A DNA stretch of 64,000 nt from Bacillota bacterium (GTDB lineage: Bacteria; Patescibacteriota; Patescibacteriia; Patescibacteriales; UBA12465): assembly GCA_050259635.1 (NCBI GenBank), contig JBLNBA010000002.1:90681-154680 (forward strand), in the 5' to 3' direction. The notes beneath the pieces are model-generated. The model was not told where the DNA came from. It ran no database searches and saw only the letters and a program-made list of their open reading frames with translations. Position 1 is the stretch's first letter. Every line of letters starts with the position of its first letter. Below, one piece after another: positions 1-22,221 of this stretch. A program made the translations under genes and the position numbers.

Positions 1-3000
1 ACACTCCTCTCGCTGGTGGCCGTATTTGCCTTTTCGTCGCTTGCTTTGGCAGCGCCAGAACCCGGAGGGCAGACTGTCAATATGCCGGGAGTTGCCAGCG
101 ATGATAGCGATGTGATCGCCGTGCGCGTCTTGCCTAATCCTAACCACTTTAGCGCCGCGAGCTGGTATCGTTCGCAAGGATTTAGCGGCTCTCCGCAAGC
201 GATGCTGGTAGACGGATACGACGCCGTTCGTGATGGGCGCACTGTTTACGTCAACGCGGCTAATGTAAATCTGGCCAATAAGTTGATCTATACTAATATC
301 TACTTAATTTCTTATAATCAGAATCCGGATTTTAAGACGGTGGATGCGCTCGGGCAGATGGTCAAGCATTGGCAATTCAATAGCAACCTCGCGACTCCCG
401 GTTATTGTTCTATTTCTACCTTGCGCTGTTCTTCTGATACTGATTGCAGCGAAGGATATGAATGCGTGGGCGAAGGAGAAGCGCCGGGGCGCTGTTTATC
501 CAAAGAGGACGACGCCTGTAACACTGATAAGGATTGTGCTTCGGGCATATATTGCGACAATGTCCGTTCTAAAGTTTCCCGCGATGTCCGCCGGCTTTCT
601 TCCTTGATCGATCTCCGTACTTCTTTGACCGCCTTTCGGGAGGCTAATGGCAAATATCCGGTGATGGGAGCTGGAACTTATCTGCCCTTACGGAGCCTTT
701 CTGTCTGGCCAAGCTGGCAAGCTTCCTTGCTTCCGCAGCTGGGAGCGTCCCAATCGATGGCTGATCCGGTCAACCATTTGGGGCAGTGCGCCGGGTTTGA
801 TCCGGTAACTTGTTGGAATGCGGAAAACAAAACCTTTGCTGACCCTCATCCGAGCGATGATGTCTTCGAATTGCCGGCGGGTAGCTACGCCTTTGCTTAT
901 AAAGGCGATGCCAACGGTTCTAATTTCACCCTTTGTTCTTCCATGGAAACCAAAGCTCTCGGTTTCAATACCGCTGAGGGTAATTTGGCGGACTACGGCT
1001 GTGTTGCTAGCGGAGCCGCCTATATCGGATCAAGCGAGAATAATGCTCCGGTCTTGGTGTCTGTTAGCCTGCAAGGAGAAAGCGACCAGGAATTCGCCGG
1101 TTTTATTCGGGTTATCGATCCGGACGGCAATCCTCTTAGCTGGACCCTCAATACGGCCGGTACTTCCTGGACGAACTGGAAAAATGGAGGGGTGAACAAC
1201 GCGGCTCCCATCATCCAAGATACGGCAAATCCCAGCCAGAAAAAGATTTATGCCCAAGCGGCTGGAAATTCCGGGAAATATAACATGTCCATTATCGTGG
1301 ATGACGGCCGGGGCGGAACCCTGGCAACGGTCACTCCGATTGTCGTCGGGAACGGCGCGCCAGTCATCCGGTCTGATGATATTGAGTATTATCCGAGTTC
1401 GGTTATTCCTTTAATGGTGAAGTTTAGTATTACCGACAAGCACCAGCCATTTAGTTATACGATAGCGAAATCACAATACAGTTCGGGACCCTTTGATCTT
1501 TTGTCTTCGGCTAATGCTCAATTCCTGGGCGAGAGCGTGACTAAGGTGGGCGATACTTCTTATTATATTTTAAAATACAATATCATCCCGGCGCCAAAAT
1601 ACGGATCTGACCAGAATTTTGTCTATACCGTTTCGGCAAGGGATGCTTATAACAACGTTTCTACCAGGCAGATAAATATCTTGGTAAAAGCGGACCACCC
1701 CAAACTTGACCTCAACTGCCCCAAGGCTGTGCGGCTCAACGCCCAGTATTATTGTGGTCTCGGCTGGCGCAATCAAGGCGATCATACTATCGTGTATTCG
1801 GCGGTGGGCAATTTGCCAGCCGGTTTGGCGATCGTCAGTTCGGAAAATATCGGTATTGATACCGGCGGGGAGAACGATTTGAAATCTCCGGACGGAGGAG
1901 GGGAAGTAGTAGACCCGGCGGGCAAGGATACGAGTTTTCTCCCTCGTCTTATGGCGGGACTCCAGCGATTGTTTCCTCGGGTATCCGCCGCCTCACCGTC
2001 TTTGTTCTATGCTTTAAGCGGAAAGCCGACTAGAGCCATTTCATCATTTCCCGTCAAAATTAAGGCAATGAATGAATATGGTGCGGATACCGTCAAGGAG
2101 TTTGCTCTCGATATAAATACCTATTGTGGAGACGGCGCGAAGCAGCAGCCCAATCAGGAAGGCCGGGGGGGTTATTATAATGATGGTCAGGAAGATTGCG
2201 ATGGCAATAGCGGCATTATCCTGGATCGGGCGCGGATCGCCAGTTCGAGCTCTCAATTGCGGTATGGCTGTACGACTTTAGCCGGTGAAAAAGTCCCTTA
2301 TCCGATCACCACCAACCAGTTCTGCGTTTATAAGGGTGGCGGTCCGGAAGAAGGAGGCGGTTATTGCGGGGATGGAGTTTGTCAGTTCAAACTGTTGACC
2401 TCCACCGGCCTCGTTCCCTGGGAAGCGGAGAAGTATTGCATGGCAGATTGCTTTTGCGATGGTCTACACCAGTTTGCGCAGGGAGCTGAATGCCTCTGCG
2501 AAGAGGGGTGGAGAGATTGCGACGGTTTGCCCGGTTGTGAAAGCGACAAACAGTGTGAAGCTTGCCCGGCAGGACAATATAATTGCGGTAATGCTTGTTA
2601 CAATACAACTTCTTTCAAGTGCGGAATGCAAAGTCCTACCTGCTATACCGGCGGGACCAGTTGCACTGGAAGCTGCGCGGTCAATATGTATAACTGTGAC
2701 GGTATAAATGGCTGCGACGGGCCTACTTGCACTTGTCCGGCAGGACAATCATGGGATAACGCTCCTTGGCCGAACGGCAAGTGCGTAGCGGAAAGTACCT
2801 GCGCGTCTCCGCTGCTTGAATGTAATGGCGCTTGTTATAATCCTAATACCCAAAAATGCTGCAGTAGCGGGGATGTTTGCGGAGCTAACCAGGTGTGTTG
2901 CGGAGCAACCGCCACCTATCCCTGCGCCTCTAGTGCCGCTTTCTGCGTCATGGAAGTTGATCCGATCGGCGGCGGAGGTACGCCTAGCGATGGCGGGCGA

Positions 3001-3003
3001 TAG
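1..3003 (+). CDS. Large secreted cysteine-rich surface protein; 5' end runs off the window. Contains a pilin-like domain, Ig/cadherin-like repeats and a Cys-rich C-terminus
   Basis: Frame is open from nt 1 (track 16..3003). N-terminus has a signal-like hydrophobic stretch ...SSLALA|AP. 'DLRTSLTAFREANGKYP' resembles the pilin/pseudopilin globular-domain motif. 'YCGDG...EDCDGN' and 'YCGDGVCQ' Cys repeats are present, and the last ~250 aa have very dense CxxxC spacing. Confidence 0.6.
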   Translation, partial: TLLSLVAVFAFSSLALAAPEPGGQTVNMPGVASDDSDVIAVRVLPNPNHFSAASWYRSQGFSGSPQAMLVDGYDAVRDGRTVYVNAANVNLANKLIYTNIYLISYNQNPDFKTVDALGQMVKHWQFNSNLATPGYCSISTLRCSSDTDCSEGYECVGEGEAPGRCLSKEDDACNTDKDCASGIYCDNVRSKVSRDVRRLSSLIDLRTSLTAFREANGKYPVMGAGTYLPLRSLSVWPSWQASLLPQLGASQSMADPVNHLGQCAGFDPVTCWNAENKTFADPHPSDDVFELPAGSYAFAYKGDANGSNFTLCSSMETKALGFNTAEGNLADYGCVASGAAYIGSSENNAPVLVSVSLQGESDQEFAGFIRVIDPDGNPLSWTLNTAGTSWTNWKNGGVNNAAPIIQDTANPSQKKIYAQAAGNSGKYNMSIIVDDGRGGTLATVTPIVVGNGAPVIRSDDIEYYPSSVIPLMVKFSITDKHQPFSYTIAKSQYSSGPFDLLSSANAQFLGESVTKVGDTSYYILKYNIIPAPKYGSDQNFVYTVSARDAYNNVSTRQINILVKADHPKLDLNCPKAVRLNAQYYCGLGWRNQGDHTIVYSAVGNLPAGLAIVSSENIGIDTGGENDLKSPDGGGEVVDPAGKDTSFLPRLMAGLQRLFPRVSAASPSLFYALSGKPTRAISSFPVKIKAMNEYGADTVKEFALDINTYCGDGAKQQPNQEGRGGYYNDGQEDCDGNSGIILDRARIASSSSQLRYGCTTLAGEKVPYPITTNQFCVYKGGGPEEGGGYCGDGVCQFKLLTSTGLVPWEAEKYCMADCFCDGLHQFAQGAECLCEEGWRDCDGLPGCESDKQCEACPAGQYNCGNACYNTTSFKCGMQSPTCYTGGTSCTGSCAVNMYNCDGINGCDGPTCTCPAGQSWDNAPWPNGKCVAESTCASPLLECNGACYNPNTQKCCSSGDVCGANQVCCGATATYPCASSAAFCVMEVDPIGGGGTPSDGGR

Positions 3004-15459: not shown

Positions 15460-16176
15460 ATGAGAGTCGACTTTTGCGTGCCGGTGTATAATGAGGGTGC
15501 CATTTTCGACGCTAATGCCGAAAGGATCTGGCGCTTTTTAAAGGCGGCGTCGCTGCCTTATGAGTGGAGTCTGATCTTTATCGTCAATGGTTCTTGTCCT
15601 GATTTTGAGATTCAAGTAGAAAGCTTCGCTAACGCTGTCCGTCCGGAAGTTTCTTGCTATATTATTCCTGAACCTGGTAAAGGAAGGGCGATTAAGACGT
15701 ATTTTAACGCCAGCCAAGCAGATATTATCGCTTATTTGGACATTGATTTAGCGGTTGACCCTTCTGCGTTGCCTAAGCTCATCGAGCCGATTACCCAAGA
15801 GGAAGCGGATCTGGTGTTTGGCTCGAGGATGCTTCCCGAATCGGTGAAGAACCGGTCGTGGGTGAGGGAATCCAGCTCAAGGGCGTACATCGCCTTTTCA
15901 AGGGCCGTGTTGGGGCATCATTTCAGCGACCTCCAATGCGGATTCAAGGCTATAAGGGCTTCGGCTTGGCGGCATATTTCTCCTTACATCGAAAATGAAG
16001 CGTGGTTTTTCGATACCGAGCTTATATATTATGGCCAGCGATTGGGCTATCGCTTAAAAGAGATACCGGTAGACTGGTCAGAGAATCGATATAGCGACCG
16101 GCACAGCAAGGTAAATCTGTGGCGGGACGGTTTACATTTCATTAAGGAAACCATCGCTCTTAAGAGCCGATCTTAA
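15460..16176 (+). CDS. Family 2 glycosyltransferase (polyprenol-phosphate sugar transferase-like)
   Basis: 238 aa GT-A fold: VPVYNEG, YLDIDLA (DxD), FGSRM, CGFKA. Confidence 0.8.
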   Translation: MRVDFCVPVYNEGAIFDANAERIWRFLKAASLPYEWSLIFIVNGSCPDFEIQVESFANAVRPEVSCYIIPEPGKGRAIKTYFNASQADIIAYLDIDLAVDPSALPKLIEPITQEEADLVFGSRMLPESVKNRSWVRESSSRAYIAFSRAVLGHHFSDLQCGFKAIRASAWRHISPYIENEAWFFDTELIYYGQRLGYRLKEIPVDWSENRYSDRHSKVNLWRDGLHFIKETIALKSRS

Positions 16177-16338
16177 AGTAAATTATATAATTATTTTTAA
16201 GCCCGCGTTTACGGGCTTTTATTTTACCCTCCTCCAAAACGCCAATATACATGGGCGTTTTTTTAACAAAAAATCTTATCCACAATGGTAAAATATCGGA
16301 GGCATTTTAGATGATTTTTATCTGAATATTGGCTGATT

Positions 16339-16367
16339 TTGACCCTCTTTTTTGATTCTGCTATAAT
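16339..16367 (+). promoter_or_regulatory. Promoter of the nrdR-nrdD operon
   Basis: TTGACC, 17 nt spacer, TATAAT with an extended TGc. Confidence 0.65.
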
Positions 16368-16375
16368 ATGGTTAA

Positions 16376-16423
16376 CTACAACATTTAGTGGAGTAAAGGA
16401 AAATTGCCCACTAAATATAGCAA
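16376..16423 (+). promoter_or_regulatory. Tandem NrdR boxes
   Basis: ctACAACATTTAGTGg (16376-16391) and cCACTAAATATAGcaa (16408-16423). Each matches 11/16 positions of the palindromic consensus acaCwAtATaTwGtgt. Centres are 32 bp apart, immediately downstream of the -10. Confidence 0.6.
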
Positions 16424-16437
16424 TTTAAAGGGTTTTT

Positions 16438-16899
16438 ATGAAATGTCCCGTCTGCTACCACAACGATACTAAGGTTGTCGACTCACGCGTCGCCGTTGAT
16501 GGTCTTTCTATCAGGCGTCGGAGAGAGTGTTTGAAGTGTAGTTTCCGTTTTTCGACCTATGAGGAAATTGAGATTTTGGACCTCATTATCGTCAAACGTG
16601 ATGGCCGACGTGAATCGTATAGCCGCGAGAAGCTAACGAGCGGTCTGCGCAAGTCCTTGGAGAAGCGGCCGGTGACCGAAGATAAATTCAAGCAGATCAT
16701 CCATGGCATCGAGCGCGACCTGCAGAAGCAACGCCAAGGGGAGGTAACATCTCGCCAAGTGGGCCAGATCGTCATGAAACATTTAAAGAAGACCGATCCG
16801 GTTGCTTATATACGCTATGCGTCCGTTTATGAATCGTTCAAGGATGCTAATGAGTTCCGACGGGAGCTTAATAAGCTTATCAAAGAGAAACATAAATAA
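16438..16899 (+). CDS. nrdR: Transcriptional repressor NrdR
   Basis: MKCPVCYHNDTKVVDSR...CLKC zinc ribbon plus an ATP-cone. Confidence 0.95.
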   Translation: MKCPVCYHNDTKVVDSRVAVDGLSIRRRRECLKCSFRFSTYEEIEILDLIIVKRDGRRESYSREKLTSGLRKSLEKRPVTEDKFKQIIHGIERDLQKQRQGEVTSRQVGQIVMKHLKKTDPVAYIRYASVYESFKDANEFRRELNKLIKEKHK

Positions 16900-16943
16900 A
16901 CTTAATATATCGCGGCGATAAAAACGCTGCCCTCACGAAACAC

Positions 16944-18995
16944 ATGCCCGAACTCATCAGCCAGATCCGGAAACGCTCCGGTGAAATCGTTGACTTCAGT
17001 CAGCAGAAAATTAAGGAAGCCGTTTATAAGGCCGCTCTTTCCGTGGAGATTGATGATAAGGCTTTAGCGGAAAAGCTCAGTGAAGAGGTGGTCATGAAGC
17101 TTTCTAAGAAATTCCACAAGAATAGCATCCCGGCGGTCGAGGAAATCCAGGATTTAGTCGAAGAGGTATTGATAGAAAATAAGCAGATCAAGACGGCTAA
17201 GGCATATATCCTTTATCGTGATCAGCATCGTCAATTGCGTGAATTGAGCAAGGCGACCTCCGATGAGAAATTGATGGAAGACTACCTTGGCCGAGCCGAT
17301 TGGCGCTTGAAGGAGAACAGTAATATGAGTTTCTCCGTCCAGGGATTGAATAATTACATCGCTTCCGCTGTTTCTGCCCGATATTGGTTGAATAAGCTCT
17401 ATCCTCAAGCAATCCGTGATGCCCATATCAACGGCGACCTTCATATCCACGATCTTGGTTTATTGGCTCCTTATTGCTGTGGCTGGGATCTGAAAGACCT
17501 TCTAATCAAGGGCTTCGGAGGCGTGCCAGAGAAGGTGCAGAGCAAACCGCCGAAACATTTCCGCAGCGCATTAGGCCAGATCGTTAACTTTTTCTATACC
17601 ATGCAGGGCGAAGCGGCCGGAGCCCAGGCCTTTGCTAACTTCGACACCTATCTCGCTCCTTTCATCCGCTATGACGGCCTGAGTTTCAAGGAAGTGAAGC
17701 AGGGATTGCAGGAGTTCATGTTTAATATCAACGTTCCCACACGTGTCGGATTCCAAACCCCTTTCACCAATGTTACCTTGGATGTAACCCCTTCGAAACT
17801 AGTGGGCGAAGAGAATGTTATCGTCGGCGGCCAGATCATGCCAGAGAAGTATAAGGATTTTCAGCCGGAGATGGACATTTTTAACCAGGCATTTGCCGAG
17901 GTGATGATCGAAGGAGATTCTACCGGGCGGGTATTTGGTTTTCCAATCCCGACCTACATGATTGATAAGAACTTTGACTGGGATCGCGAGAGCCTTAAGC
18001 CGGTCTGGGAAATGACTGCCAAGTACGGCGTTCCTTATTTCTCTAATTTTGTTAATTCGGACATGGACCGGGATGATGCGCGTTCGATGTGCTGCCGTTT
18101 GCGGCTTGATAACCGTGAATTGCGCAAGCGCGGAGGAGGACTCTTCGGAGCCAACCCTCTTACCGGCAGCCTCGGGGTGGTGACTATCAATCTGGCTCGT
18201 ATCGGCTATTTGGCTAAGGGCAACAAGGAAGACTTCAAGAACCGGATCTATAAGCTTATGGATGTGGCCAAAGAGAGCTTGGAGATCAAGCGGAAGATTA
18301 TCGAAAAATTCTCCGAAGACGGCCTGTACCCTTATTCCCGTCATTACCTGGCCGATATCAAAGCTCGTTTTGGGACATACTGGCAAAATCATTTTAATAC
18401 CATCGGCATCAATGGCATGAATGAAGCGCTTTTGAACCTGATGGGGAAGGATATCACAACCCCGGAAGGGCACTCTTTCGCCCTTGAAGTGATGGATGCG
18501 ATGCGCGAGCGCTTAATGGATTTCCAGAATGAGACTAATAATCTCTATAATCTTGAAGCTACTCCGGGCGAGGGCTGTACCTACCGTTTTGCAAAGAAGG
18601 ACCTCGAGCTCTATCCGGAAATGATTTTTGCCAATACTGAAGCCACTAAGAACGGAGCCGCTCCTTATTATACCAATTCAACTCACTTGCCGGTTGGTTT
18701 CTCGGAGGATATTTTTGCTGCTTTGGATCTACAGGATGATCTCCAGATCAAATATACCGGCGGCACTGTGCTCCATGGCTATCTGGGTGAGCGTCTACCT
18801 GATGGCAATGCCGCCAAGAAATTGGCAAAGCGGATCATTGAGAACTACCGCCTTCCTTATTTCACTATAACGCCGACCTTCTCGATCTGCCCCAAGCATG
18901 GTTACCTGGCGGGTGAACACAAATACTGCCCTAAATGCGACGAGGAGCTCGGTTTTACCGGGACGATGCTTTCCCAGCGCGAGGTAGAAGCCTAA
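16944..18995 (+). CDS. nrdD: Anaerobic ribonucleoside-triphosphate reductase, large body lacking the glycyl-radical loop
   Basis: 683 aa with an N-terminal ATP-cone, class III RNR core (CCRLRLD, GGLFGANPLTGS) and a C-terminal Cys/His cluster ICPKHG...CPKC. It stops before any RVxGY motif. Confidence 0.93.
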   Translation: MPELISQIRKRSGEIVDFSQQKIKEAVYKAALSVEIDDKALAEKLSEEVVMKLSKKFHKNSIPAVEEIQDLVEEVLIENKQIKTAKAYILYRDQHRQLRELSKATSDEKLMEDYLGRADWRLKENSNMSFSVQGLNNYIASAVSARYWLNKLYPQAIRDAHINGDLHIHDLGLLAPYCCGWDLKDLLIKGFGGVPEKVQSKPPKHFRSALGQIVNFFYTMQGEAAGAQAFANFDTYLAPFIRYDGLSFKEVKQGLQEFMFNINVPTRVGFQTPFTNVTLDVTPSKLVGEENVIVGGQIMPEKYKDFQPEMDIFNQAFAEVMIEGDSTGRVFGFPIPTYMIDKNFDWDRESLKPVWEMTAKYGVPYFSNFVNSDMDRDDARSMCCRLRLDNRELRKRGGGLFGANPLTGSLGVVTINLARIGYLAKGNKEDFKNRIYKLMDVAKESLEIKRKIIEKFSEDGLYPYSRHYLADIKARFGTYWQNHFNTIGINGMNEALLNLMGKDITTPEGHSFALEVMDAMRERLMDFQNETNNLYNLEATPGEGCTYRFAKKDLELYPEMIFANTEATKNGAAPYYTNSTHLPVGFSEDIFAALDLQDDLQIKYTGGTVLHGYLGERLPDGNAAKKLAKRIIENYRLPYFTITPTFSICPKHGYLAGEHKYCPKCDEELGFTGTMLSQREVEA

Positions 18996-19030
18996 GTTAT
19001 TAAACCTAATTAATTATAATCCATATAAAT

Positions 19031-19177
19031 ATGAGCCCGATCACCACTCAACGCCAGGAATGCATCGTTTATAGCCGTGTCGTCGGCTGGCTAACCCCCG
19101 TGAAGAATTATAACCCCGGAAAAGCGTCTGAATATAAGGATCGCAAGACTTTCGTGGTTGATTGCTCGGAAAAATAA
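19031..19177 (+). CDS. Separately encoded NrdD C-terminal glycyl-radical mini-protein (48 aa)
   Basis: My own translation; the ORF is below the 60 aa track cutoff: MSPITTQRQECIVYSRVVGWLTPVKNYNPGKASEYKDRKTFVVDCSEK. It matches the class III RNR Gly-radical signature (VYSRVxG[YW]..PV..[WY]N.GK..E..DRK). Confidence 0.7.
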   Translation: MSPITTQRQECIVYSRVVGWLTPVKNYNPGKASEYKDRKTFVVDCSEK

Positions 19178-19238
19178 TACTGGATCGGCGAGCGCGGGGA
19201 AAGGCCGTGATATCCCGGCGTCTCCCGATCGTCTTTCT

Positions 19239-19970
19239 ATGATTATTGGCGGATTAGAAAAATTGACTCTCATAGATTATCCCGATAATCTCGCTGCGAT
19301 CGTCTTTACCCAAGGCTGCAATTTCCGCTGCCACTTCTGTTACAACCCTATGCTTGTCTGGCCCCGTACCGAAAAGCAGGAGCCTGACGAAACCCATAAA
19401 GGACAAGGTTTTCCTCCGATAAAGGAGGAGGACCTTTTTCTTTTTTTGGAGGAACGTCGAGGGAAGATAGACGGGGTAGTGATTACCGGCGGGGAACCGA
19501 CGCTTCATGCGGATCTTCCCGAGTTTATCCGACGGATAAAGGGCTTGGGGTATATCGTGAAACTTGATACTAACGGAACTAATCCTGGGATGCTCGAGCG
19601 CCTCATTGAGGAAGGTTTGGTGGATTATATCGCGATGGATCTAAAGGCTCCTTGGGAACACTATCATGAGGTGGTGGGGGTTCGGCCTGATTTAGGTAAT
19701 TTGCAGAAAAGTGTTAAAATGATAATGTCTTGCGGCCTTCCGTACGAATTCCGCAGCACTCTTCTTCCCGAGTTCCATGATGAAGAGGCTGTTGCGGCTA
19801 TGGGAGAAACAATTGCCGGAGCAAACCGCTGGTATTTGCAAAAATTTAAGCCTGATACCGATTTAGTGGACACGTCCTTCCAAGGGAAGAACACTTTTAC
19901 GGACAAGGCCTTAGAAGAGCTCGCGCTGATTGGCAGCAAATATGTCAAGGAGTGCCGAGCAAGAGTGTGA
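19239..19970 (+). CDS. nrdG: Anaerobic RNR activating radical-SAM enzyme
   Basis: CNFRCHFCYNP (CxxxCxxC) and GGEPT. I chose the ATG at 19239; the track TTG at 19158 overlaps the mini-ORF. Confidence 0.9.
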   Translation: MIIGGLEKLTLIDYPDNLAAIVFTQGCNFRCHFCYNPMLVWPRTEKQEPDETHKGQGFPPIKEEDLFLFLEERRGKIDGVVITGGEPTLHADLPEFIRRIKGLGYIVKLDTNGTNPGMLERLIEEGLVDYIAMDLKAPWEHYHEVVGVRPDLGNLQKSVKMIMSCGLPYEFRSTLLPEFHDEEAVAAMGETIAGANRWYLQKFKPDTDLVDTSFQGKNTFTDKALEELALIGSKYVKECRARV

Positions 19971-19971
19971 T

Positions 19972-20241
19972 ATGGAAGATAATAATAAGGTAGTAAGCGA
20001 ACCGTCCGATATCCATGAAGATCTCAAGGAGCTGCTCAAGCAGAACCTTGAGATTAGCAAGGACATGCAGGCTATGATCAAACATATCAATAGTTATGTG
20101 GCCTGGCAGAGGATTTTCGGGTGGTTGAAATTCATCCTGATCCTTATTCCGATTATAATCGGAGTCCTTTATCTGCCGCCTTTCATCCGGGAGGCTTATC
20201 GGGAGCTTATAAGCATTATTAAATCAGGTTCTGGTATCTAG
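19972..20241 (+). CDS. Small membrane protein, unknown function
   Basis: 89 aa from ATG 19972, with a coiled N-terminus and one TM helix WLKFILILIPIIIGVLYL. Starts 1 nt after the nrdG stop. Confidence 0.5.
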   Translation: MEDNNKVVSEPSDIHEDLKELLKQNLEISKDMQAMIKHINSYVAWQRIFGWLKFILILIPIIIGVLYLPPFIREAYRELISIIKSGSGI

Positions 20242-20253
20242 CGTTAAACAATT

Positions 20254-22221
20254 ATGAGCCAAGATATTGCGGTATTCGCGCAAACGACTTTCCGCAACCA
20301 ATTCAAGAAATTCGGGATCAAAACCGACGACCGTCGCCGGCATATGTATTTAATCGGGAAGACGGGCATGGGTAAGTCAACGATCCAGGAAAACATGATC
20401 GTTGGCGACATTCGCGCCGGTCATGGTTTGGCTGTGGTAGATCCACATGGCGATTTGGCTGAGAAGATCATCGAATATATTCCGGAAGAGCGCATCAAGG
20501 ATGTGGTCTATTTCAATCCGGCAGACATGGATTACCCGATCGCCTTCAATGTCCTTGAACAGGTCGAGCCTCATTTGCGGCATTTGGTCGCCTCGGGCTT
20601 GCTCGGGGTCTTCCAAAAATTGTGGGCTGACTCCTGGGGGCCTCGGCTTGAATATATCCTTCGTAATGCTATCCTGGCCATCCTTGATTTTCCCGGCTCG
20701 ACCCTTTTGGGCGTCGTCCGCATGCTTTCCGACAAAGCCTATCGCAAGCGGGTCGTTTCCAATATTAAGGATCCGGTGGTAAAAGCTTTTTGGGAGAAAG
20801 AATTTGCCTCCTATGCGGACAAGTTTGCTTCCGAGGCGGTTTCTCCTATCCAGAATAAAGTGGGACAATTCTTGTCCAGTTCTTTGATGCGCAATATCAT
20901 CGGGCAAGTGAAATCGGCCATCAATATCCGCGAAATAATGGATGAGGGGAAGATTCTTATAATGAATTTGAGCAAGGGTAGGATCGGGGAGGACAACTCC
21001 GCTTTGTTGGGCGCGATGATGATTACTAAGATTCAGCTCGCAGCTATGAGCCGTGTCGATATGCCGGAGAAAGAGAGAAAGGACTTTTATCTTTATATCG
21101 ATGAATTTCAAAATTTCTCAACCGACAGCTTTGCTAACATCCTTTCCGAAGCTAGAAAATATCACCTCAATCTCATACTGGCGCATCAATATATCGAACA
21201 GCTGAGCGAGAAGGTAAAACCGGCAGTGTTCGGTAACGTCGGTACGATGGTTTCTTTCCGGGTAGGGGCTACCGATGCCGAGGAACTGGCTAAGGAATTT
21301 GCTCCTGTCTTTACGGAAGAGGACTTGGTAAACCTTCCGAAGTATGAAATGTACCTTAAGCTGATGATCGACGGTGTTGCCTCATCCCCATTCTCGGCCA
21401 AAGGCTTGCCTCCTCTTACCGACGAAGAAAAAACCTATAACGTAGACAAGGTAGTGGCGGCCTCGCGCGAAAAATATGCCAGTAGACGAGCTGAAGTGGA
21501 AGAGCGTATTTTGCGCTGGCATGAAGTACAGGAAGATGTGCCGGGTCCGGCGGTATTTATAGAAGAGCCGGCCAGAGAACCGCGTCCTGCGGCCCCTAAA
21601 GGAGTATCTCGCACTTTCACACCTCCCCAGGAAGTACCCATTGTTCCGGAAGCAAAACCATCCGAAGCTGCCGTGCAAGCTCCCTATGCGGTTAATGAGC
21701 CCCGTCCTGCCCCCTATTCTTCGCCTATACAACCGCGTCCCGCTGTTCAGGCGCCGGTAAGGAAGGATCTTGTGCGCCCGGTCTCACAGATGCAACCGGC
21801 GGCGCTGGCTCAAAATGGAGTGGTTAAGACTCAGGCCCATACTCCTCTGGCGCGGCCGTTAGAAGCATCGCCGAAGGCCGGCAAGCCGCTGAAGCAGGGT
21901 TATCCTGCTGTGTGTTCACGCTGTGGTGCTAGCACGACTACTGTCTTTGTCCCTGATGGCATCAGGCCGGTTTTCTGTAAGGATTGCCTGGCTCTGAAGC
22001 GGCAGGAGAAGAGCACGGAACTTGAAGCCCGCAAGAAAGCGAAAAATGAAGAGCTTGAAAAATTATCGCCAGCCATATCCCTGTCTGCTCTTAAGCACGT
22101 GCAGCCGGTTGATTTCAAGGGCCGCCCGGAAAGGAATATCCCTCCGAAACACTCTGGACCCAAGGAAGAAGGCGAAATGTCTGAGGATGAAGTGATCGAT
22201 TTCTCCCGTAAGCCGGAGTGA
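20254..22221 (+). CDS. VirD4/TraD-like P-loop NTPase with a Pro-rich linker and a C-terminal CxxC-x17-CxxC zinc ribbon
   Basis: Walker A GKTGMGKS, Walker B FYLYIDEFQNF, and ARKYHLNLILAHQ (coupling-protein-like). C-terminus is CSRC-(17 aa)-CKDC at 21913-21987. Confidence 0.75.
   Translation: MSQDIAVFAQTTFRNQFKKFGIKTDDRRRHMYLIGKTGMGKSTIQENMIVGDIRAGHGLAVVDPHGDLAEKIIEYIPEERIKDVVYFNPADMDYPIAFNVLEQVEPHLRHLVASGLLGVFQKLWADSWGPRLEYILRNAILAILDFPGSTLLGVVRMLSDKAYRKRVVSNIKDPVVKAFWEKEFASYADKFASEAVSPIQNKVGQFLSSSLMRNIIGQVKSAINIREIMDEGKILIMNLSKGRIGEDNSALLGAMMITKIQLAAMSRVDMPEKERKDFYLYIDEFQNFSTDSFANILSEARKYHLNLILAHQYIEQLSEKVKPAVFGNVGTMVSFRVGATDAEELAKEFAPVFTEEDLVNLPKYEMYLKLMIDGVASSPFSAKGLPPLTDEEKTYNVDKVVAASREKYASRRAEVEERILRWHEVQEDVPGPAVFIEEPAREPRPAAPKGVSRTFTPPQEVPIVPEAKPSEAAVQAPYAVNEPRPAPYSSPIQPRPAVQAPVRKDLVRPVSQMQPAALAQNGVVKTQAHTPLARPLEASPKAGKPLKQGYPAVCSRCGASTTTVFVPDGIRPVFCKDCLALKRQEKSTELEARKKAKNEELEKLSPAISLSALKHVQPVDFKGRPERNIPPKHSGPKEEGEMSEDEVIDFSRKPE

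Follow-up and report, generated by a model that had tools for sequence, protein, structure and literature searches.

An anaerobic ribonucleotide reductase in a Patescibacteriota genome whose predicted glycyl radical loop is encoded apart, as a probable 48-residue subunit

Can a glycyl radical enzyme be built from two polypeptides, with the radical loop encoded apart from the catalytic chain? The question is posed by the nrd locus in a 64,000-nucleotide stretch of contig JBLNBA010000002.1 (positions 90,681 to 154,680 of the forward strand; assembly GCA_050259635.1, deposited as a Bacillota bacterium and placed by GTDB in the Patescibacteriota), hereafter the window. Here the gene for the anaerobic (class III) ribonucleotide reductase (RNR), nrdD, stops short of any radical loop, and a 48-codon open reading frame (ORF) in a different reading frame, the mini-ORF, lies between it and the activase gene nrdG. 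A preliminary description of the window had proposed a split class III RNR with a separately encoded loop, and the coordinates and sequences that it gave for nrdD, the spacer, a TATAAT in the spacer and the mini-ORF all prove correct on re-reading. Glycyl radical enzymes are, in the textbook view, single chains with a C-terminal radical, GrcA/YfiD being the sole accepted exception; we find that nrdR-nrdD-(mini-ORF)-nrdG very probably specifies an obligate two-polypeptide class III RNR, in which the glycyl radical would reside on the small subunit and act in trans.

By all testable criteria except a radical loop on the same chain, the large ORF is a class III RNR catalytic subunit. PF13597 (NRDD) matches it over model positions 1-529 of 562 with 605 bits (cut-off 26.2), NF006126 over 3-652 of 684 with 1026 bits (cut-off 548), and TIGR02487 scores 513 bits (cut-off 326). 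The 683-residue protein carries an ATP-cone (residues 7-96) ahead of the alpha/beta barrel, a double-Cys finger loop, SMCCRLRLD (Cys383/384, nt 18090-18095), of a type described before (PMC9669993), and a C-terminal zinc ribbon in which the second ligand position is His; this ribbon is kept in 81 of 81 related large ORFs and aligns with its Zn-ribbon counterparts in the NrdDs from P. copri and T. maritima. The chain stops 18 residues past the ribbon, at ...CPKCDEELGFTGTMLSQREVEA (also written ...SICPKHGYLAGEHKYCPKCDEELGFTGTMLSQREVEA), followed by TAA. The earlier statement that these 683 residues hold no radical motif stands insofar as no radical domain is found; it fails to the letter, since one R..G[FYW] string does occur, RVFGF at 329-333, which lies in the barrel core and is the sole such string in the chain.

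The mini-ORF supplies what the large chain lacks. Its product, MSPITTQRQECIVYSRVVGWLTPVKNYNPGKASEYKDRKTFVVDCSEK, is matched by PF13597 over model positions 530-562 of 562 with 28.6 bits (E = 7.7e-7), above the gathering cut-off of 26.2 and in agreement with its previous assignment to the NrdD radical domain, and by NF006126 over 649-682 of 684; because the coverage of the two ORFs adjoins in both PF13597 and NF006126, they are complementary parts of one family model. The candidate radical glycine is Gly19 (GGC at 19085-19087), which is followed by Trp, and the mini-ORF holds the single radical-domain sequence in the window. PF13597 is the only match in a Pfam scan of the mini-ORF at E <= 1, with none to the Gly_radical family of the pyruvate formate-lyase (PFL) type. 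A sequence search of the PDB with the mini-ORF alone returns only a chance match, and with both chains joined the loop aligns to T. maritima NrdD.

Alignment to intact NrdDs, which the preliminary description had left to be done, defines what has been added at the break. Relative to the nearest intact relatives (e.g., P0124, ...CPKCKKA-CEVYSRVVGYLRPV...), the large chain has ~18 extra residues after CPKC, the stop and the spacer follow, and the small chain then opens with 10 residues ahead of CIVYSR. In P. copri NrdD, the glycyl radical domain consists of the zinc site, the glycine loop and a tail (PMC11226230), and because that domain includes both zinc site and loop, this comparison places the break inside what is a single domain in canonical NrdD, past the zinc ribbon but ahead of the glycine loop. 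The large ORFs of relatives are alike up to CPKCDEE(I/L)G(Y/F), and their tails beyond this point differ, from 4 to ~40 residues. The loops themselves also differ between the two forms, with Trp after the radical Gly in 119 of 119 stand-alone forms of this clade and Tyr in 64 of 66 intact ones, and with Cys11 (Gly-8) present in 112 of 119 stand-alone forms versus 18 of 66 intact forms. We considered Cys11 as an inter-chain zinc ligand and set this aside as no more than a possibility: Thr occupies the position in many of the intact NrdDs whose ribbon is of the C-H-C-C type, and the Cys is not generally needed for zinc.

As a separate observation, the large-subunit tail (18939-18992) and the small-subunit C-terminus (19160-19174) often end in Cys pairs among the relatives (L002-L008, L038, L049 and L063; ...ERCSTC, ...CC, ...CSE and GGGCGSCGCDK), which recalls the redox tails found in class I and class II RNRs.

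A scan of one genome per GTDB species yields 80 loci with NrdDs 75-90% identical to that of the window, two of which end too early. In all 78 informative species, nrdD stops, an AT-rich spacer follows, and an ATG-initiated mini-ORF of 44-54 residues precedes nrdG, so the stop, spacer and restart first remarked on in the window recur throughout. The spacers are 11-249 nt long (median 77) with a mean A+T fraction of 0.82 against 0.61 in coding DNA. With the window included, the ATG is found at the homologous position in 79/79 loci and nrdG follows the mini-ORF in 79/79 (median gap 15 nt), and the frame of the mini-ORF relative to nrdD is 0, 1 or 2 in 33, 22 and 24 loci, respectively; in 6 of the 33 same-frame loci, loss of one stop codon would fuse both ORFs. 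We find no continuous in-frame nrdD among the 78 loci or among the best 120 large-subunit clusters (79-100% identity), which are all 673-703 residues long and unfused; one of them (P0271) is the identical 683-residue protein, the product of an independent gene call on another contig record, of 72.5 kb. A search of 5.8 billion proteins with the mini-ORF gives 124 clusters, and all 120 that are listed are stand-alone, 41-65 residues long and 66-96% identical; some of these (Falkowbacteria, Parcubacteria and Patescibacteria metagenome-assembled genomes, MAGs) were already named "anaerobic ribonucleoside-triphosphate reductase" by NCBI or JGI.

Two minor points concern these collections. One stand-alone loop homologue of 43 residues (P0077) has Trp in place of the radical Gly (RVVWW), which could reflect an error, a dead copy or some other cause. 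Near-identical operons (L002, L006, L012-L014, L026, L063 and others; P0065) come from MAGs labelled 'uncultured Gammaproteobacteria', Planctomycetota, Saccharimonadales or Methylomirabilis; these labels are probably wrong, and the nearest named relatives are Falkowbacteria/Patescibacteria.

The sequence of the small protein is tightly constrained. Across 79 mini-ORF sequences (70 distinct), M1, P3, R8, E10, C11, Y14, S15, R16, V17, G19, W20, P23 and several later residues are invariant. The mean proportion of synonymous differences (pS) is 0.79, which is saturated, against 0.136 for nonsynonymous differences (pN); dN/dS has a median of ~0.07, close to the 0.04 obtained for the final 42 conserved codons in the large ORF. 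The mini-ORF is thus under strong purifying selection. Its start codon is preceded by T at -1 in 79/79 loci, which we considered as a special signal and ruled out, as the same start context is found in these genomes at nrdG (T in 75/79) and nrdD (56/72), with A at -6 for all three genes; because this context is the clade norm, the ATG is an ordinary, well-kept initiation site. Shine-Dalgarno-like strings occur in only 7/79 spacers, and the leaders are A-rich.

The split extends well beyond this clade. An exhaustive HMMER search with the large ORF against 1.84 billion cluster representatives gives 7460 matches, and of the best 150, analysed here (42-77% identity), 138 cover the C-terminus; 72 of these 138 end 0-41 residues past the zinc ribbon without a radical loop, and 66 are intact, with the pattern ...CPxC-x3-5-(C/T)EVYSRVVGYLRPV..WN.GK..EF..R.... 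The genomic context of 10 loop-less representatives from other subclades reveals a separate loop gene nearby in 5 (Table 1). In one of these (L083, 4116-6023), a 353-residue DUF7487 gene sits directly behind the loop-less nrdD and the loop gene lies past nrdG, so the position of the small gene is not fixed. A short-query tblastn search of deposited phage genomes for a stand-alone loop gene returned two weak matches only. Split and intact forms are interleaved in a bootstrapped neighbour-joining (NJ) tree built from query-anchored alignments, and with soft polytomies the lower bound on the number of state changes falls from 4 to 2 as the bootstrap threshold is raised from >=70% to >=90%; from these bounds, the split, or re-fusion, has on this tree occurred more than once (at least 2-4 state changes). 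Counts of 27 changes on the fully resolved NJ tree and 34 under hard-polytomy parsimony were both rejected as overcounts. Judged from these searches, the phenomenon is far wider than a single genome from the Candidate Phyla Radiation (CPR), a point that the preliminary description missed.

The NrdDs of this subfamily (P0121-P0270; L082, L085, L087 and L089) are also heavily interrupted by inteins, with Pfam matches to Intein_splicing and LAGLIDADG families and 2-4 matched stretches, examples being P0138 (1879 residues) and P0159 (1776 residues). The insertion sites recur near query residues 172, 271, 384 and 546, and the window copy is intein-free. Several NrdDs that keep the loop (P0155, P0163, P0184, P0189, P0200 and P0212) have a C-terminal thioredoxin/glutaredoxin-like domain (...TTCPNCK...), and two others (P0170 and P0230) appear to be fused to an NrdG-like C-terminus.

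An AlphaFold2 (AF2) model was obtained for both window chains joined end to end, with an input alignment that combined intact relatives, large subunits without the loop and stand-alone peptides. The model has a mean predicted local distance difference test (pLDDT) score of 85.2 and a predicted template modelling (pTM) score of 0.79, and it matches every solved class III RNR with E = 1e-30 to 1e-21. The junction is its least confident part (residues 674-676 and 686-689, pLDDT < 50), and in the mini-ORF part a helix follows an ordered beta-hairpin (695-700 and 703-706) whose tip carries the invariant Gly (residue 702 of the joined chain). The small peptide, as modelled, is compatible with the canonical loop position.

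In the mechanism that we propose, the 683-residue chain would provide the ATP-cone, the catalytic barrel with its Cys finger loop and the zinc ribbon, and the 48-residue chain, made from its own ATG, would bring the loop with Gly19. NrdG would take an H atom from Gly19 of the small chain to form the glycyl radical, and the hairpin of the small chain would dock in the barrel beside Cys383/384, in place of the canonical covalent C-terminus, with catalysis thereafter as for other NrdDs; a possible benefit is that only a 5-kDa piece might have to be swapped after cleavage by oxygen. YfiD is radicalised alone by the PFL activase and restores the activity of loop-less PFL (PMC8683613), and in NrdD the radical domain moves as a unit, leaving the barrel in the dATP-inhibited state (PMC11226230). 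Candidates for chain-chain contacts are two motifs whose conservation is confined to the split clade, namely DEE(I/L)G(Y/F), which follows the zinc ribbon, and MSP...RQEC, at the N-terminal end of the peptide, together with the near-invariant Cys at Gly-8. Several points weigh against an obligate two-chain enzyme: a free peptide with a glycyl radical would be poorly protected before docking; the AF2 model is silent on assembly in trans, because the chain was joined for modelling; and the other five loop-less loci (L081, L084, L085, L087 and L088) have no loop gene within 2-6 kb, the partner being elsewhere or missing.

The putative operon promoter is the sole strong sigma-70-like promoter that a consensus scan finds in 16100-20400, just past a terminator-like hairpin, and the same scan calls neither a promoter nor an intervening terminator in the nrdD-mini-ORF spacer. 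This 35-nt spacer is 86% A+T (30/35), with an A-rich stretch and T at -1 ahead of the mini-ORF start and a TATAAT at 19015-19020 that has no -35 partner. In the nrdD frame, the TAA at 18993-18995 is backed by another stop at 19011-19013, and a stop at 19007-19009 bounds the mini-ORF frame on its upstream side; given these stops and the change of frame, a fused product would need read-through plus a frameshift. The preliminary description had suggested that the mini-ORF has its own near-leaderless promoter. In a naive count that leaves related spacers uncollapsed, TATAAT is present in 47/79 spacers against 20.5 in shuffles, and TTTATAAT in 32 spacers against 3.8 expected, but once spacers that share a 14-mer are merged (32 groups) and dinucleotide-preserving shuffles are used, TATAAT is found in 10/32 groups against 7.5 +/- 2.3 expected; the enrichment is gone, and a separate promoter in the spacer is unsupported. 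With the sole strong promoter upstream of nrdR, and no terminator or supported promoter in the spacer, the simplest reading is that nrdD and the mini-ORF are co-transcribed from there and that the small subunit is translated independently. A search for NrdR boxes (ACACWATATATWGTGT, <=3 mismatches) gives no match anywhere in the window, and Rfam gives nothing at E <= 1 in the region, so the idea of a structured RNA or intron was dropped.

Table 1. Features of the nrd operon in the window, followed by loop-less nrdD loci of other subclades that have a separate loop gene
Feature	Positions	Strand	Basis or description
Terminator-like hairpin, end of upstream transcription unit	16199..16218	+	consensus scan, pattern match only
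Putative operon promoter upstream of nrdR, sigma-70-like	16339..16367	+	TTGACC-17-TATAAT, 11/12 matches, TG before -10
nrdR, transcriptional repressor of nrd genes, 153 aa	16438..16899	+	Pfam Zn_ribbon_NrdR 72.7 bits, ATP-cone 69.1 bits
nrdD large subunit, 683 aa	16944..18995	+	PF13597, NF006126
Zinc-ribbon motif C649-x2-H652-x9-C662-x2-C665 on large subunit	18888..18938	+	sequence motif; predicted metal site
Tail after zinc ribbon, DEE(I/L)G(Y/F), then poorly conserved stretch and TAA	18939..18995	+	alignment of relatives
Intercistronic spacer, 35 nt	18996..19030	+	stops in nrdD frame and mini-ORF frame
Mini-ORF, 48 aa, predicted glycyl-radical subunit	19031..19177	+	PF13597 and conservation
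nrdG, radical-SAM (S-adenosylmethionine) activase, 243 aa	19239..19970	+	TIGR02495 NrdG2, 199 bits (cut-off 131)
L082, Caldimicrobium sp. (Thermodesulfobacteriota)			intein-bearing nrdD, 25-nt spacer with strong Shine-Dalgarno site, 59-aa ORF ...PCEVYSRVVGYFRPV...
L089, cellular context			order nrdD, 59-aa loop gene, nrdG
L090, phage-like (HNH gene nearby)			loop ORF overlapping nrdD stop
L086, phage-like			64-aa loop gene immediately downstream
L083, phage-like (DnaB, MazG)			order nrdD, DUF7487 gene, nrdG, 61-aa loop gene

Could the two ORFs nevertheless yield one chain, or be unrelated in function? An indel might be suspected from the single window alone, but an error of sequencing or assembly, or a recent pseudogene, is so improbable as to be negligible, with the identical protein on an independent contig record, the same layout in 78 independent assemblies whose spacer lengths and frames differ, and strong purifying selection on both pieces; because the mini-ORF, genome-locus and large-ORF searches agree, we regard indel, assembly error and recent pseudogene as excluded. 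Rejoining of the pieces into one chain, by recoding (read-through plus frameshift, or bypass), RNA splicing or protein trans-splicing, has precedents in the group I intron of T4 nrdD and in other intron-split phage nrdD genes (PMC3653736), and inteins are common among the homologues. It is nonetheless very unlikely here, as the spacers share no structure and Rfam is empty, all three relative frames occur, in the window the nrdD frame is stopped twice and the mini-ORF frame once, and the ATG kept in every locus is needed by no rejoining mechanism; moreover, 35 nt are too few for a group I or group II intron, and the tail plus the new N-terminus, ~25 residues without intein motifs, are too short for a split intein. 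Two variants were discarded individually: for translational bypass, a GCC take-off/landing pair exists but the landing is out of frame, and frames vary by locus; for a split intein, whose halves total ~120 residues or more, there are only ~18 + ~10 flanking non-family residues, and the tail, 4-40 residues, is unconserved. YfiD/GrcA also offers a precedent (PMC8683613) for taking the mini-ORF as a repair protein for an intact NrdD elsewhere, unused by the 683-residue protein, and this we consider highly improbable: the mini-ORF lies between a loop-less nrdD and nrdG in 79/79 loci, the large ORF retains all other catalytic features, no intact close homologue is found in the best 120 clusters, and the window has only the one radical-domain sequence.

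A different question is why the split exists. On a neutral account, nrdD was interrupted by a mobile element or a small insertion where a disordered linker could tolerate it, and the pieces reassemble with no gain in repair or regulation; this is compatible with the two-subunit mechanism, as it concerns origin only, and we regard it as a serious possibility that falls somewhat short of being the probable one. The subfamily is full of inteins and LAGLIDADG elements, the DUF7487 gene right behind nrdD in L083, with the loop gene beyond nrdG, is foreign, the segment that holds the break is disordered in the AF2 model, tails and spacers have drifted freely in sequence as well as length, and Aeh1 NrdA-a/b and NrdJa/b are precedents (PMC2988022, PMC9669993). 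Drift alone sits less easily with zero re-fusions in 78 species and the best 120 clusters, though one stop loss would do in 6/33 same-frame loci, with recurrence at least 2-4 times, with new conserved motifs on either side of the break, and with the lack of any visible endonuclease remnant in the 35-nt spacer. The adaptive alternative, by analogy with PFL, is that of a spare part: oxygen would cut at the radical Gly, and only the 48-residue subunit would be lost, replaced and re-activated, the 78-kDa subunit being spared. It is established that oxygen cleaves at the radical Gly and that a stand-alone radical domain rescues PFL (PMC8683613, PMC13450708), the mini-ORF and the activase gene are closely linked, and the split is kept across a large clade of small-genome organisms, but a separate promoter has no statistical support, and the rationale is less obvious for the phage-like contigs and the thermophile in which the split also occurs; we hold this account as tentative and rather unlikely. 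Similarly doubtful is its boldest extension, that of a class of glycyl radical enzymes with a free 5-kDa 'cartridge', in which NrdG would radicalise the 48-mer as its natural substrate, the 48-mer would plug the loop-less NrdD barrel, and the cartridge alone would be replaced after oxygen cleavage, with several independent origins (CPR bacteria, Thermodesulfobacteriota and phages). If it were true, the cartridge design would account for about half of the sequence clusters in one major NrdD subfamily, and cartridge release could be the step controlled by the ATP-cone and dATP.

The two-chain enzyme favoured here shares its families (PF13597, TIGR02487 and NF006126) with the canonical NrdD/NrdG systems of phage T4, E. 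coli, T. maritima, P. copri and S. thermophilus, and, like them, it has an ATP-cone, barrel, SMCCR finger loop, zinc ribbon, RVxG[YW] loop and adjoining NrdG. Unlike canonical NrdD, its loop is on a separate polypeptide, with ~18 added residues past the zinc ribbon, 10 before CxVYSR, and Trp after the Gly. Class I RNRs (NrdA + NrdB) follow the same concept, in that a separate small subunit keeps the stable radical and passes it to the catalytic one; that small subunit is unrelated, being ferritin-like with a metallo- or tyrosyl radical, and it relies on long-range transfer, with no insertion of a loop by the active-site Cys. Closer in kind are the PFL cofactors GrcA/YfiD of E. coli and Y06I of phage T4, which are likewise small stand-alone glycyl-radical-loop proteins; GrcA/YfiD is activated by the cognate radical-SAM activase and acts in trans with a chain that lacks an intact loop, and the comparison drawn in the preliminary description is apt as an analogy (PMC8683613). 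GrcA is, however, a back-up for oxygen-cleaved but otherwise intact PFL, whereas here the partner never has a loop (78 relatives and the best 120 clusters), which argues for an obligate subunit, and GrcA has PFL-type homology, whereas the mini-ORF has NRDD homology.

RNR genes are known hot spots for interruptions (PMC2988022, PMC3653736, PMC9669993), and Aeh1 NrdA-a/NrdA-b, P. aeruginosa NrdJa/NrdJb and the nrdD pieces of phages (T4, phiAS4 and Lactococcus phage 949) are likewise adjacent pieces of one chain that must come together again. Those known split RNRs are isolated examples in which the fragments overlap or the break holds an endonuclease or an intron; in the nrdD split described here, the radical loop alone is cut off, the arrangement is clade-conserved and recurrent, and there is no mobile element at the break, where we find neither endonuclease gene nor intron, the 35-nt spacer having no ORF or Rfam match. 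A 2026 review places stand-alone radical-domain proteins only among formate-lyases (PMC13450708), and the 2021 YfiD paper merely speculates on further such proteins. A 2022 RNR phylogeny in eLife kept proteins of 400-1100 residues (PMC9531940), a filter by which small subunits would have been removed. No paper found by full-text search describes a stand-alone NrdD radical subunit, subscription-only literature being outside this scope and an earlier mention there possible.

The arrangement would be an apparently obligate two-chain form of an essential enzyme, clade-wide and recurring elsewhere. As a natural system with separable parts, it could replace synthetic peptides in work on the access of the activase to the buried Gly and on the exit and re-entry of the radical domain, and it offers a candidate route by which class III RNRs may repair oxygen damage. 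In annotation, a subunit of 44-66 residues will be missed under ORF length cut-offs and "partial" flags; length-filtered surveys would misclassify the loop-less NrdDs, and metabolic reconstructions could score the enzyme as broken.

A few features of the surrounding DNA complete the picture of the window. A 973-residue ORF at 82-3003 has no Pfam match at E <= 1e-5. Within the nrdG coding sequence, a terminator-like hairpin (19405-19446; 13 pairs, 6 of them G-C, then a T-run) sits in an insertion relative to the NrdG2 model (...KGQGFPPIKEEDLFLFLEE...). Directly downstream of the nrd operon, 20254-22221 encodes a 655-residue protein in which a long Pro/Ala-rich linker joins a type IV secretion coupling-protein ATPase domain to a C-terminal treble-clef zinc finger.

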